From Eledone cirrhosa (lineage: Eukaryota), in the NCBI GenBank assembly GCA_964016885.1, contig OZ024743.1, positions 56,668,001 through 56,732,000 on the forward strand: a stretch of 64,000 bases of DNA, written 5' to 3'. Of this stretch, positions 13,200 to 61,098 are shown piece by piece; the first letter of the stretch is position 1; each line of letters opens with the position of its first letter. A program made the position numbers and the translations under genes. The notes beneath the pieces were generated by a model. The model had not been told where the DNA came from. It ran no database searches and saw nothing but the letters and a program-made list of their open reading frames with translations.

Positions 13200-13357
13200 A
13201 ACGAAGGAAATGTGGTAAGGAACAGATGGACCATAACGCACCAAAGTACTCAATACTTAGGATAGTAGAGTGGGTAATAGGAACAGGTACGACCCCGATG
13301 GCTGAGCTCAAGCCGTTTCGACGGCTTGAGCTCAGCCGTCGGGGTCCTACTTGTTCC
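13200..13357 (-). mobile_element. Short palindromic PLE-terminus element in (TA)n, copy 1
   Basis: Same sequence family as 39606, 41886 and 60891; GGAAC..GACCCC..CTGAGCTCAAGCCGT inverted arms. Confidence 0.8.
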
Positions 13358-13581
13358 TATATATATATATATATATATATATATATATATATATATATAT
13401 ATATATACATGTGTGTGTAGGGAGTGTAACGCGGAGTTACTGTAGGTTCACCCGGGTGAGCACTCGATGTTTAGGTTCACGTCAGTAGCGAGGTATAGAG
13501 CAAGACAGAGTGTTGCTCTATACAAGGACGAATGTAATACAAGGACGAATGGTTACTCCTTTATTACGTTTATTGGTTGGT

Positions 13582-13612
13582 GACGCGCGTTTCGCTACTG
13601 ATCAGCTCATAG
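13582..13612 (-). ncRNA. Degenerate minimal hammerhead motif
   Basis: CTATGA-GCT-GATCAGT-AGC-GAAACGCGCGTC followed by AATAAA; core lacks one G and stem I does not pair. Confidence 0.35.
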
Positions 13613-14338
13613 TTCGATCTGGCCCGATTCTGGAATCAAAATGTGTATGTGTGTATTATATACAAAGGAAAGAAAGAAGAGCCGATCATGGGTGTACACA
13701 CACGCGCGCACACACACACACACACACGCGCACACACGCACACACACACACACACACACGCACACACACACACACACACACACACACACACACACACACA
13801 CACACACATGCATACATACATCAAGGTTTGCTCCCTTCCGAGCCCTCTTTGGGGTCTCGAGATACGCAATATTTGTGCGTCCATTCTACGCCTCACAGGA
13901 CAGTCACAGGCCCATCGCCAATTTTTGCAGCATGAAATGGTGACCAATATATTTTCTGAACAGGCCCTTCTACCTAAGACCTGAACGCATCCCTTATTAA
14001 CCCGCGCGAAGGACGATGCGGTTGGTTGTTTTTGCACCTAAGGTGGTCTTATTCGCGCCAGTCACCAATCTGGTACTTTCTCAAACCCGCGAAGACTAAG
14101 GTTTATTTTATTGGCGGCCTTTACTCGCCTCCTCATAGCTACATCACTGGGTAGTGAGAGTTTTCTTGGGAGCTACAGGTAACACCCATTGCTCCATCTG
14201 CACTACTAGTTTACTGCTGTTGGTCCGGGGTTGCTTATTCGTCCGGCAGCTGCCCGCTTATATCGCAACTAATCATATCTGGTGGCCGTATCGCTGTCTG
14301 GCACATGCGACCCGTACACTAGCAGAAAAGCTCTGGCA

Positions 14339-14560
14339 ATATATATATATAGTGTATATATATATATATATATATATATATATATATATATATATATATA
14401 TATATATATATATATATATAGTGTATATATATATATATATATATATACATATATATATAATATATATATATATGTATATATATATATATATGTATATATA
14501 TATATATATATATATATATATATATATATATATATATATATATATATATATATATATATA
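14339..14560. repeat. (TA)n microsatellite, one of more than 40 TA/CA tracts in the window
   Basis: Direct observation; such tracts are the source of the YIYI, HTHT and VCVC ORFs. Confidence 0.95.
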
Positions 14561-15357
14561 CAATAAAGTATGTCCATAGAATCATTTGATAAAATATATA
14601 TACTATTTCCTCTCCCAATCAGCATAATCAACCACACAAAAAACCAATTAAACCAGGCTATAAGATTAAAAGACACCTATGAAGAAATAATAGATAAATA
14701 AACGACAGCTATCAATTCGCGATCAACAGCCATACAATATTTACCCACTATTTCCAATAGCACGTGGGAATCGATTAAATATATCGTCAACCATACACAA
14801 TTAGGTATAAAATCAAAGTTAGAAGAAAAAATGTATATAAACATACCAAAATTATATATATATATATATCTTTTACTCTTTTACCTGTTCCCGCCATCCG
14901 GCAGAGGCCATGCTAGGGCACCACTCCTCATATATATATATATATGAAGAAAAGAAAAGAAAAGAAAAAGAGCCAATCGTCAGAGCAGACTAAGAAAACT
15001 GATGGATCTTTCCATTGTTGATACTATCGGCCGGTCGCAACTCGTGGCAGACAGTGTACACACACACACACAGACACAGACACAGACGCACGCACAAACA
15101 CACACACACACACACACACACACACACACACACACACACACACACACACACACACACACACACACACATAGTTTATATAAAATTTCATACACTTGACATG
15201 TATTCGTGACCTTAGGTTTCGTGGTCCACTTATGGCCACCACTATAGTGGAGGAGCCGTTCTAAAACTTGCCTCACTCGTCAGGCGCAAGGACAAAAATT
15301 TGGTGGAAGTGGTCAGTATCAGTATAACTGAACCCCGAAACTTAAGATTACGCTTTA

Positions 15358-15560
15358 TCTATATATCTAAAACAGAGAATGTCCGTTTGTCTGTCCACTC
15401 ACTAAAACTCGAGAACCACCCAACCGATTGTTTTCAAACTTTACACATGTAATACTTATGGTCCTGTGAGTGTTTTGAGAGAAAAAAAATTTCAAATTTT
15501 TTATGCCCTAGGGACCACATTAGGCGATTTAGCGATCTTTCTCCATAATTCTTAGTCTTT
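15358..15560 (+). mobile_element. Probable non-autonomous Helitron 5' end
   Basis: A|TCTATATATCTAAAACAGAG...GTTTGTCTGTCC...AACCGATT...AAACTTT, the usual 5' TC pattern. Confidence 0.45.
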
Positions 15561-57599: not shown

Positions 57600-58330
57600 A
57601 TCCCAGACAACCAGACACAACAGCCCTCCCCTCTCACTATAACGCACTTACCCAGACTACTCCTCCCCTTCCTCCATCCAAGAAACACACTTTGCCTCCC
57701 ACACAGTCACTTCTTCCTTATCCTTCACAGTCATTAGCCTCCTCCCCTTCATCTCACCTCCGACATACTTCCCCCCTCTTTTCCTTACACCGACAGAAAC
57801 TTCCCTTCTACCGCCACCACAATACCGCTATAGTTCCCTTCTCCATCTTCCTCTCACTACAGACACAAACACAACCCCCCCCCCCCCCCCCTTCCTTCCC
57901 TCACTACAGACGTAGACACAGTCCTCCTGTTCTTCCTCTTTCCCTGATTACAACCCCCAACCAAGTCACTTCTCTTTCCCCTCACTACACCACCGACCGG
58001 TCTGCCTCCTCCTCATCCTCTCATTACAACTGTGACACATTCCCAGTTTCTCTCTCCCCACCTCACTCACTATACTACGGACTGACACAGTACCCCTCCT
58101 CCTCCCCTTACTACAACCATGACTGTCTGCCTCCTCCCTGACACATTCCCGCTCTACCTCTTCGTTCCTCTTTTCACTATACTACCGACTGACACCACTG
58201 CCTCCTCCTTCTTCCTCCACCTCCCTATACAACCGACTGACAGACTTCCTCCGCCTTCCTCACTACACTACCGATTGACACTATAGTCTGGCCTCCTCCT
58301 CTCATTGTATATCAGCCTCTATAGAGCACG
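57600..58330. repeat. Pyrimidine-rich degenerate minisatellite
   Basis: Recurrent CCTCACTAC..ACCGACTGACA..CCTCCTCC units. Confidence 0.65.
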
Positions 58331-58661
58331 TGGCTGATACCACTGTCTCCGTCTGCCCCAGTATCTTTTGGTCACTTACATCTTCGCGTCTTCCCGTTTC
58401 TTGCTTGCTATTCAACAACAACTGTAAGTTTACCTATACTTACTTTAAACTTGTTCTGTTTTCACTCTTGGTGATCTTTCGTAAGTGGTAGATTGAATGT
58501 AAACAATGAAATTGACGTATTTACACATACGTGTATATGTATGTGTTCGACAATATTCGTGATGTTTGCATATCGATTTCATTGTTTACTTTCCGTCTAA
58601 CAATTACGAAAGATCGCTTCCTTCTTTTGTCTAATGTTTCTCATCATCATTATTATTATTA

Positions 58662-59015
58662 CTAACTTTGCCTTTCATCCTTACAGGGTCGATAAAATAA
58701 AGTACCAGTAATACACTGGGATAATTGCTGGCCTTATGCCAAAAGTAGAAACAATTATCTGAGTTCAAATCCCGCCGAGGTTAACTTTACCTTTCATCCT
58801 TACGGGGTCGATAAAATAAAGTACCAGTAATACACTGAAATAATTGCTGGCCTTGTGCCAAAAGTAGAAACAATTATTATTAATGTTGCTTCGACCCTCT
58901 ATTTGAGTTCAAATCCTGCTGTGGTTAACTTTGCTTTTCACCCTTTCGAGGTCGATAAAAGAAAATACCAGTTAAGCGCTGGCCTTGGGCCTAAATTAGA
59001 AACCATTATTATTAT
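58662..59015 (+). mobile_element. Three head-to-tail 5'-truncated SINE copies
   Basis: AACTTT.CCTTTCATCC..GTCGATAAAA..GTAGAAACAATT three times. Confidence 0.85.
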
Positions 59016-59753
59016 TGTTATTGCTCGTGGTTTGGTTTTTGTTAGTGGTTTGTAGTACTGTATATTTCTCATCTATAACACAAGAAATTAAGGGCAACAA
59101 AGGGGGTCATTTATACACGATTACACGTCTTCAGAAACTGTTACTGTACTTAAAATTACTAATTTCAAATGGCAAGATTGCAAATATATGTTGATAATTG
59201 TTTACAAATAGTATTCAAGAACATCCTGTTGTTTTACATTTTTATCGTCATAAGAAACTGAATATTCCAGTGAAATCTATGTATGAGATCGAGATTTTAA
59301 TGGATAACATGGTACAAGTTGACAAAAATTGTTTACATTGACATGGTTATACTCTGGGGTCGTATACACAAGGATTTAATTTATTCTTGATTTTAGTTTC
59401 AGAAACAGGGGCCTTATAAAATACAAATAAACACGGTAATTTAAATCCATTTCGTGTCTGCGTTGCTACATACTCCAAAATAAAGCGGGAACTTTGTGGT
59501 CGCTTGATCTGCCAGAAATGACAGCCAAATCTCCCTACTGTTTTAAAAATATGAAATGACGCTCTTTGCGATGAGTTGTTGTGGCTTACTTGTGTAGACT
59601 ATTTAATCCATCGCTCTGTTTGACACCACCACCTGGCTTTTGAGTACCTTTATCGGAGTCCATTCTGCTGCAAACATTTATACATGGTTACGATTTGAGG
59701 ATACTTTCCTTCTATCAGTCCTAGATGCCCCGAAAAGAGCGTGTACACTGCTG

Positions 59754-59965
59754 TTCCCTTCCATAGATGCACAAAGATAGGATGGTCACAGTTAGAATCC
59801 TTTTGGTTATAGGTCTGCTTGATCAGGTTAGACTTCAGTCTAAACATCATTTTCAGTTTTCCCTTCCATAGATGCACAAAGATAGGATGATCACAGTTGG
59901 AATCCTTTTGGTCATAGGTCTGCTTGATCAGGTTAGACTTCAGTCTAAACATCATTATCAGTTTT
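59754..59965 (+). repeat. 105-bp tandem duplication
   Basis: TTCCCTTCCATAGATGCAC.. at 59754 and 59859. Confidence 0.9.
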
Positions 59966-60890
59966 CATCTTATTGGTATCCAACTGTCTGAAATCGCCCT
60001 TGGTTCTATCATACAAAACTGTTTATTTTAATGTGTTTATATAATTATATAAAAACATTCCATGACAATTCAATGTAAATAGCTTTGTTATGCATGCTAT
60101 GTTCCAAACACCAACTTAATAATCAGAAATCTTGTTACATTGCAAACCTCCCTCACCAGATTCTTGATTATTTATAAAATTGTTTTAAAATAATAGGCAA
60201 TGTCTAAATAATCTTATATAATATAGTGTACTTATATAATACGATCATAAAATCCATCAAAATGAAAATGAAAATTCCATATACTCTCTAATAGTCCATT
60301 TATACGTTATAAACCTAAGAATTTGAAAACAATTCACTGTTGGTATTTACTGAAAAGATAAAGTGATCAGATTTGGTCTAAAAGCAGTGTCTTTCGTTAG
60401 AAGAAAAATGGAAAGGGTTTAAGTAAACATCCACCACACAACCTGCTATTGTTATTGTTTATCTGACTACTGTAGTAGTAGTAGTAGTTGTGTGTGACTA
60501 GCACTAATGTATGCCACTATCTCTTCAATCTGTTTTTCCCGCTTATTATTTTAACCTTATTTAAACCTAAAGATAACTAAATATTTCTCTTAATATTTAC
60601 CCAATTATAGAACCATTTCCACTCCTTTTCGTCTATCTATTATTCCATCATTATGAAAATCTTACACCCCCGCCCCCGTCTAAGCTCCCATCTCTCTCTG
60701 CCTACATGTGTATATATATATATATATATATATATATATATATATATATTGAATGACTCTCTTTCTTTATATATATATATATACTCACACACACACAGAG
60801 GATGTCTCCAAAAAATGTATTCACACATCAACAGCATTCTAATAAAAGTGCGTATACATTTCGGGGGAAACCCTATATATATATATATAT

Positions 60891-61098
60891 AACGAAGGAA
60901 ATGTGGTAAGGAACCAGATGGACCATAACGCACCAAAGTATTCAATACTTAGGGTAGTAGAGTGGGTAATAGGAACGAGTAGGACCCCGACGGCTGAGCT
61001 CAAGCCGTTTCGACGGCTAATTCTGGACTAATTTAGTTTTAGTCCAGAATTAGCCGTCGAAACGGCTTGAGCTCAGCCGTCGGGGTCCTACTCGTTCC
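60891..61098 (-). mobile_element. Short palindromic element, copy 4 (longest hairpin centre)
   Basis: Perfect ~60-bp arms around the loop ATTTAGTTT; TA flanks. Confidence 0.85.

Follow-up and report, generated by a model that had tools for sequence, protein, structure and literature searches.

The window analysed here comprises 64,000 nucleotides of the Eledone cirrhosa genome (assembly GCA_964016885.1, contig OZ024743.1, positions 56,668,001 to 56,732,000, forward strand) and harbors four copies of a palindromic element, located at window positions 13199-13358 (copy 1), 39605-39789 (copy 2), 41886-42067 (copy 3), and 60890-61098 (copy 4). According to the sequence evidence presented below, these copies are stub insertions of a Penelope-like retroelement, probably generated by twin priming. 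All four are bordered by (TA)n at the end reading TAACGAAGG, and three share the GTTCC/TATA end, which runs into (TA)n, the exception being copy 2. The arm corresponds to a hammerhead motif reduced to its 3' half and contains, in this order, a strand of stem II, GAAA, stem III (6 bp), GTC, and a strand of stem I; no CTGANGA half is found upstream in any of the four copies, and the centres vary, both within the window and genome-wide. Apart from the genome-wide variation, these features had been described in an initial annotation of this stretch, which placed the fold-back centre in stem II; usually, the centre is instead a point in loop II where both arms stop. The palindromes are asymmetric, with an extra tail of 80 nt on one arm only, and the two TAT sites at which the arms end lie 80 nt apart. 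In the following, the arm ending at the second TAT site is called the tail arm and that ending at the first the short arm; positions refer to the predicted cleavage site of the hammerhead, with C17 as -1 and G1.1 as +1.

Whole-genome searches were made in the 3.0-Gb assembly. A 20-nt motif present in both arms gave 42,322 exact matches and no control match, so the family is not a chance product. The order (TA)n, short inverted arm, variable centre, longer tailed arm, and (TA)n was found in nearly all of the first 30 best matches to copy 4 (28 of 30 listed), and insertion into (TA)n was the preference seen in the inspected stubs. The first clue to a parent came from a stub (L085) joined to an open reading frame (ORF) of the GIY-YIG type. 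Searching with this ORF revealed 29 further loci, most of which run through a 1.2-kb 3' untranslated region (UTR) into an arm plus tail. Five loci contain the full 3.6-kb unit intact and a sixth contains it with part deleted (L233, L236-L239, L245); the unit is composed of a repeat with the complete motif, the tail, a 5' UTR, the ORF, the 3' UTR, and a second repeat. Since repeat and tail flank the ORF on both sides, the stub sequence would be present at both the 5' and the 3' end of the element RNA. The repeats (pseudo-long terminal repeats, pLTRs) are arranged in partial tandem with the tail at one end, and inverted truncated copies occur in L235, L237, L238, L240, L242, and L244.

The parent protein is encoded by a single ORF and combines a reverse transcriptase (RT) with a GIY-YIG endonuclease at its C-terminus, as read from motifs in the translation (RT motifs, DKT, RWR, CxCX5C, YIG, CxxC, and CxH, but no CCHH); a Pfam search of the ORF gave no match. 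Because the protein motifs match the published description of the Hydra clade, which has RWK at the place of RWR, the palindromes are assigned from their sequence to a new Hydra-type family, as stub insertions of an endonuclease-positive (EN+) Penelope-like element of that clade. The retrotransposing parent that the initial annotation had postulated was thus found in the form of full-length, ORF-bearing units. In L085 itself (near 228.18 Mb), the short arm leaps from loop II to the end of the ORF, omitting the 1.2-kb 3' UTR, and is then fused head to head to a complete mini tail arm.

The parent contains a hammerhead motif of type I that is complete, and a loose pattern for this motif gave 6,662 matches genome-wide. 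The motif shows three stems around the core, G10.1-C11.1, GAAA, and UH, with all four bases (G, T, A, C) occurring at N7. In a hand count of the first 100 matches, positions 3 and 8 were U3-A8 in 78, C3-A8 in 20, U3-G8 in 2, and the canonical C3-G8 of the Hydra clade in none; the two positions are hence paired in most copies and unpaired in those with C3-A8, which is common in one subfamily (18 of 23 motifs examined). The parental core reads TTGANAA (U3-A8) or CTGAGAA and not the CTGANGA that had been predicted. A search for a parent with CTGANGA returned 34 matches, and the 30 inspected were all chance centres or junctions or chimeras; a pattern anchored on stem I returned 12 matches, none of them a parent of this family. 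An older subfamily (174 matches) keeps U3-A8, with three stem II pairs changed on both sides, and 92% of cells are paired over 17 copies of five subfamilies, these copies being related and therefore reflecting few independent events. U3-A8 is a natural hammerhead covariation in Schistosoma Penelope-like elements (PMC4209133). The ribozyme called in the initial annotation holds, as a predicted structure, by way of this variant core.

Arm ends were read from the first 100 motif matches along one chromosome (18 Mb, ordered by position), each arm being extended against real parent copies. After removal of duplicates, 114 unique arms were obtained, the ends of which can be uncertain by a few bases if the partner arm has the same sequence there. 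Seventy-two arms end at -35 to -45, 30 are shorter, and 12 continue into the parent, with none of the 114 ending at -46 to -70. A strict rule governs their pairing: all 45 head-to-head pairs are composed of one tail arm and one short arm, as are the long inverted insertions. The short arm reaches further in 23 of these pairs, the tail arm in 15, and both are equal in 7; a first pass with fewer references and imperfect duplicate removal gave 19, 16, and 8, respectively. Counting only differences of at least 5 nt, the short arm is longer in 14 pairs and the tail arm in 6, and of the 31 arms reaching -41 to -45, 18 are short and 13 are tail arms. In seven loci examined (two belonging to the sample), the tail arm stops within the tail and the short arm is almost full.

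The two arms of a pair are also related in sequence. Their nearest haplotype differs in 19 of 135 pair entries (which include selected samples, some counted twice), nearly all by single changes and with one clearly mixed locus (L217); random pairing would give 25% alike haplotypes. The subfamily is nearly always shared by the two arms and rare variants sometimes are; single differences are mostly private (211, versus 26 found in both arms). The shared subfamily and rare variants suggest that one RNA served for both arms. Occasional use of two RNAs is indicated by a few stubs (L031, L045, L051), which abut the inverted end of another family head to head and lack (TA)n at the join. The partner family of these three stubs also occurs in the window, as an inverted pair with a CTGAAGA...GAAAT core (Table 1). 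The centres of L089, L083, L075, and L182 contain repeated templated inserts or long A/T runs, as is presumably to be expected from slippage or from joining of the polymerase-theta type.

Two classes of arm ends can be distinguished, the first of which lies close to -41. A base other than T precedes -41 in 6,571 arms that start there; in 3,045 of them this base is G, and the parents seen have T or C at this position, never G. The partner arm was unable to supply this extra G in 19 of 30 inspected loci. Near-symmetric joints number 720; among the first 50, counted by hand, 13 show the G on both arms, with 0-2 bases between. The sequence TYAGTY spans -41 and is retained in the older subfamily, though the rest of loop II has diverged there; we take it to fit the initiator consensus. 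Extra G marks copying of the cap in L1 elements (PMC11702581), and an internal promoter lies within this repeat in Drosophila Penelope (PMC2377424). Transcription probably starts inside loop II, at about -41 to -45, and yields a capped RNA; the 5' core half would be missing from the stubs because of this proposed start. Two other candidates for the -41 end were discarded by eye, namely HDV-like cleavage (no suitable P1 partner seen) and a splice acceptor (no common upstream exon in 30 loci). GTTTTAG as a fixed 5' end of the family was dropped as well after the position-ordered sample, as it gave only 100 matches and the sample that had suggested it was biased.

The second class lies at the predicted ribozyme cut. 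A very short centre is present in 443 insertions. Among the first 49 of these (hand count), 19 have two arms that stop at +1 and enclose non-parent bases; 6 are blunt and ambiguous, 5 have one arm at +1 and the other trimmed, 7 are of a -1/-3 type, and 12 are others. Genome-wide, insertions with a single A/T between the arms number 55 at +1, 0 at +2, and 0 at -2, the last two registers serving as controls. A one-sided +1 pattern (896 matches) was not used as a count, as 5 of 30 inspected matches were slips in a G run and others were ambiguous. That both arms stop together at such a rare end suggests one RNA for both, and the +1 class, as far as junction sequences can tell, is a probable trace of ribozyme cleavage in vivo.

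From the parent, the two TAT ends, the one-tail-one-short rule, and the two classes of stops, all of which are observed, we infer a priming route and a cleavage trace. The stubs would be made by twin priming, i.e. two complementary DNAs (cDNAs) of one RNA would be joined head to head, and we regard this as the probable origin of the family. The endonuclease would cut the (TA)n target on both strands, and each target 3' end would pair with one UAU on the same element RNA. One target end would prime at the first TAT, giving the short arm, and the other at the second, giving the tail arm; the tail cDNA would displace the other cDNA, and both would be extended to the physical 5' end of the RNA. 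Host end joining would then trim the cDNA ends and pad them with bases. Most stubs would result from priming on the 5'-proximal sites of a capped transcript starting at about -41 to -45, so that the 5' half of the ribozyme is off the template. A minority would arise from priming on the 3' cleavage product of the ribozyme, with a stop at G1.1 (the +1 class), and long insertions from priming on the 3' copy of the sites, on uncut or circular RNA. A broader proposal comes close to an even balance without quite reaching it and is offered tentatively: programmed twin priming may be normal for Penelope-like elements, each target end invariably using its own fixed site on a single RNA, which would make inverted head-to-head products with a tail on one side the rule; and the junctions may map both a capped start that splits the hammerhead and an in vivo cut. 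The first transcript would then have only the 3' half of the ribozyme at its 5' end, and cleavage there would require the missing 5' half to be lent by the repeat at the 3' end of the transcript.

Several points weigh against twin priming with a capped start and a ribozyme cut. Start site, cap, and cleavage are all read from DNA junctions only, and the arms sampled for their ends lie within 18 Mb of a single chromosome. The partner arm could supply the extra G in 11 of the 30 inspected loci. Later deletions at the centres could yield some of the asymmetry between arms, though they fail to explain why short arms extend to the end of the template. The shared subfamily fits snap-back or gene conversion too. 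In 32 insertions, the join lies in the -1/-3 register, in which the middle base is also a parent base and which reads equally as a 3-nt microhomology join; this class can represent such joins or, alternatively, stalling where stem III begins at its foot, and the peak at +1 therefore does not stand alone. Concerning the motif, an Rfam search of the window and four parent loci returned no hammerhead or other ribozyme family above noise. The minimum-energy structure of the young subfamily is a competing hairpin between the 3' strand of stem II and the 5' strand of stem III, the hammerhead fold lying 0.8-5.8 kcal/mol above the minimum in six copies, and the C3-A8 mismatch affects about a fifth of the complete motifs.

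Among the alternatives to twin priming, sealing of an end deserves attention first. A double-stranded cDNA or RNA-cDNA end might be closed to a hairpin and opened by replication, the centre then corresponding to the template's 5' end. Such hairpin ligation has been proposed for L1 fold-backs (PMC11702581), and it accounts for blunt or 1-nt centres and for variants shared between arms. It requires, however, an unexplained second-strand primer that includes the last base, plus a second cut exactly at the first TAT; heterologous partners are not accounted for, and the TAT match at both target junctions is less simply explained. We consider this route improbable.

Slightly less credible still is the route favored in the initial annotation, in which one cDNA folds back at a hairpin of the ribozyme region, primes itself, and copies itself to the first TAT; self-priming has also been proposed for Penelope palindromes (PMC3846280). 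Copy 1 is compatible with it: its arms overlap by 6 nt in self-complementary sequence (13311-13326) and join at a 6-bp hairpin with a 4-nt loop, which fits either snap-back or a microhomology join, the hairpin being formed by a stem II strand with a stem III strand and not by stem II itself. A few sampled pairs (L175, L191, L201, L206) likewise have a tail arm at least as long as the short arm with 3-19 nt of overlap, and subfamily and rare variants are common to both arms. Against snap-back as the main route stands the simple argument that an arm made by folding back is limited to what is already present in the first arm and cannot contain the last template bases; yet the short arm is the longer one in 23 of 45 pairs, in copies 3 and 4 among others, and short arms get to the template end and bear the extra G. 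Centres of 0-1 nt are too small for a loop, tail arms are cut off within the tail beside near-full short arms, and the joins to other families (L031, L045, L051) lack (TA)n. Snap-back may apply to a minority of copies. The microhomology described in the initial annotation holds, TAT matching (TA)n at both ends; snap-back does not hold for most copies.

Equally doubtful is the view that twin priming took place on a long RNA and that the stops are RT stalls, in the U-rich part of loop II and where stem III has its foot, with neither cap nor ribozyme cut involved. A/T runs at some centres suggest slippage, ends are spread over -35 to -45, and 32 insertions lie in the -1/-3 register. On the other side, no arm ends at -46 to -70, an extra G is found at -42, and both arms stop together at +1, without C17. 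The subfamily rich in C3-A8 is also scarcer in the +1 class (7 of 49) than in the -1/-3 class (12 of 32), with p = 0.03 in a post hoc comparison of these hand counts.

A non-autonomous DNA transposon (a miniature inverted-repeat transposable element, MITE) or a self-contained palindrome that is copied whole, to which very high copy number, TA targets, and inverted structure might point, is hardly conceivable, since an element with RT and endonuclease has this sequence as its terminal repeat and, as the initial annotation had held, the centres differ from copy to copy, the ends being asymmetric and neither a fixed structure nor symmetric terminal inverted repeats being found. A non-LTR retrozyme was also rejected: such elements form head-to-tail tandem units with a complete hammerhead each (bioRxiv 10.64898/2026.07.22.740005), whereas the stubs are head-to-head and without the 5' core half.

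With the Hydra clade (Craig et al., 2021; PMC8557442), the present family shares the (TA)n target, a 3'-terminal hammerhead motif, truncated copies in inverted orientation, and the protein motifs. Units of the clade are mostly below 3 kb with a tail of 30-40 nt, compared with 3.6 kb, including a 1.2-kb 3' UTR, and 80 nt here, and the Hydra motifs examined in File S2 of that report have CTGA cores, including the one Octopus family, in contrast to the U3-A8 core and the 45-60-nt stem-loop II of this family. Inverted pLTRs of Penelope-like elements (Arkhipova et al., 2013; PMC3846280; PMC8557442) have in common with it the head-to-head copy, the tail at one end, and an initiator-like pLTR motif. 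The palindromes were read there as self-priming on an antisense template (PMC3846280), while the junctions described here favor two cDNAs from a sense template. Cercyon of Schistosoma (Cervera and de la Pena, 2014; PMC4209133) shares the core covariation in the pLTR, G10.1-C11.1, a palindromic loop III, and paired motifs on opposite strands; its motifs are minimal, whereas stem III has 5-6 bp here and stem-loop II is large, apparently holding the start site.

For the priming route, the closest parallel is Poseidon of Anolis, studied in vitro (Frangieh et al., 2024; PMC11167929). Its protein cuts and extends both target strands, starting at two internal sites, which fits the proposed twin priming; two extended target strands, two start sites bounding a tail, and an AT-rich target are shared. 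The Poseidon start sites are without target homology, whereas both sites match the target via TAT here, and no RNA reads were reported to end at the ribozyme cut there, in contrast to one insertion class that ends at the predicted cut here. Twin priming of L1 (PMC11702581) has in common with the present family a second primer from the other target end, an end-joined inversion junction, and an extra G in full-length copies. In L1, there is hardly any overlap between the two cDNAs, and the second priming site is an opportunistic one. The present family has fixed sites, and as each cDNA would copy one and the same RNA as far as its end, a palindrome results.

The copies of the window follow the genome-wide pattern (Table 1). 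The second arm of copy 2 directly contacts a different Penelope-like element at the latter's 3' end, (TA)n being absent from the junction; joint insertion or later deletion are possible origins of this contact. The base at 39745 following the tail arm of copy 2 may be a cap-derived G or part of the partner arm. In copy 3, the short arm outreaches its partner at the 5' end by 18 nt, and one base of the centre (41945) is not from the parent. Contigs from three runs of one study contain the family with varied joints near 41941-41943, but none spans the window copy, so they provide no confirmation. In copy 4, the last two centre bases (GT, non-parent, at 61036-61037, before -44) recur at the same end in 100 genomic matches and are not accounted for by cap G alone. 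A fifth copy had been overlooked in the initial annotation. The different Penelope-like element, which carries RT, GIY-YIG, and a minimal hammerhead core, is present twice, the two copies being 84-87% alike. The scattered CTGATGA...GAAAT-type cores, several of them in inverted pairs, are probably stubs of further TA-targeting Penelope-like families.

Table 1. Arms of the palindromic copies and other features of the window (window positions; arm ends relative to the predicted cut).
Feature	Position	Strand	Remarks
Copy 1, tail arm	13199..13326	-	5' end 30 nt upstream of predicted cut
Copy 1, short arm	13321..13358	+	starts 20 nt upstream of predicted cut
Copy 2, tail arm	39605..39745	-	end at -41
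Copy 2, second arm	39745..39789	+	-38/-37 to +7
Copy 3, short arm	41886..41944	-	reaches -41, plus one extra G (41944)
Copy 3, tail arm	41946..42067	+	starts at GAAA (-23)
Copy 4, tail arm	60890..61031	-	end at -43
Copy 4, centre	61032..61037		six non-parent bases
Copy 4, short arm	61038..61098	+	-44 to first TAT priming site
Fifth copy	50858..50919	-	single short arm of older subfamily in (TA)n, end at -43
Satellite	1-11068		43-bp unit, 257.5 copies, 95% matches
Different Penelope-like element, first copy	34.0-37.4 kb	+	minimal hammerhead core at 37280
Different Penelope-like element, second copy	39790-41860	-	minimal hammerhead core at 39893
Partner family of L031, L045, L051	23081-23740, 26573-26858		inverted pair
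CTGATGA...GAAAT-type cores	13044, 16021, 20722/20827, 26054/26143, 30211, 31509/31826, 42200
Open frame, 300 aa	21895-22794	-	RT motifs of another retroelement; hammerhead-like core nearby at 21235

Taken as a whole, the interpretation given in the initial annotation is partly supported. The inverted repeat with its tail is already known from Penelope-like elements; the priming route and the cleavage trace are what we infer here. In two reports, the origin of head-to-head inversions and one-sided tails in these elements is given as unresolved (PMC3846280; PMC8557442), and the searches made of the open literature, by title and abstract, brought up no paper describing twin priming in such elements, nor a cap G or ends at the cut site. 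In Eledone, one element has seeded on the order of 20,000 short palindromes (a rough figure, half of the motif matches). These provide tens of thousands of short, readable junctions, which argue against self-priming, give the strict one-tail-one-short rule, and appear to record cap and ribozyme cut to the nucleotide. If this is true, they would be a fossil sign that the ribozyme of a Penelope-like element worked in living cells.

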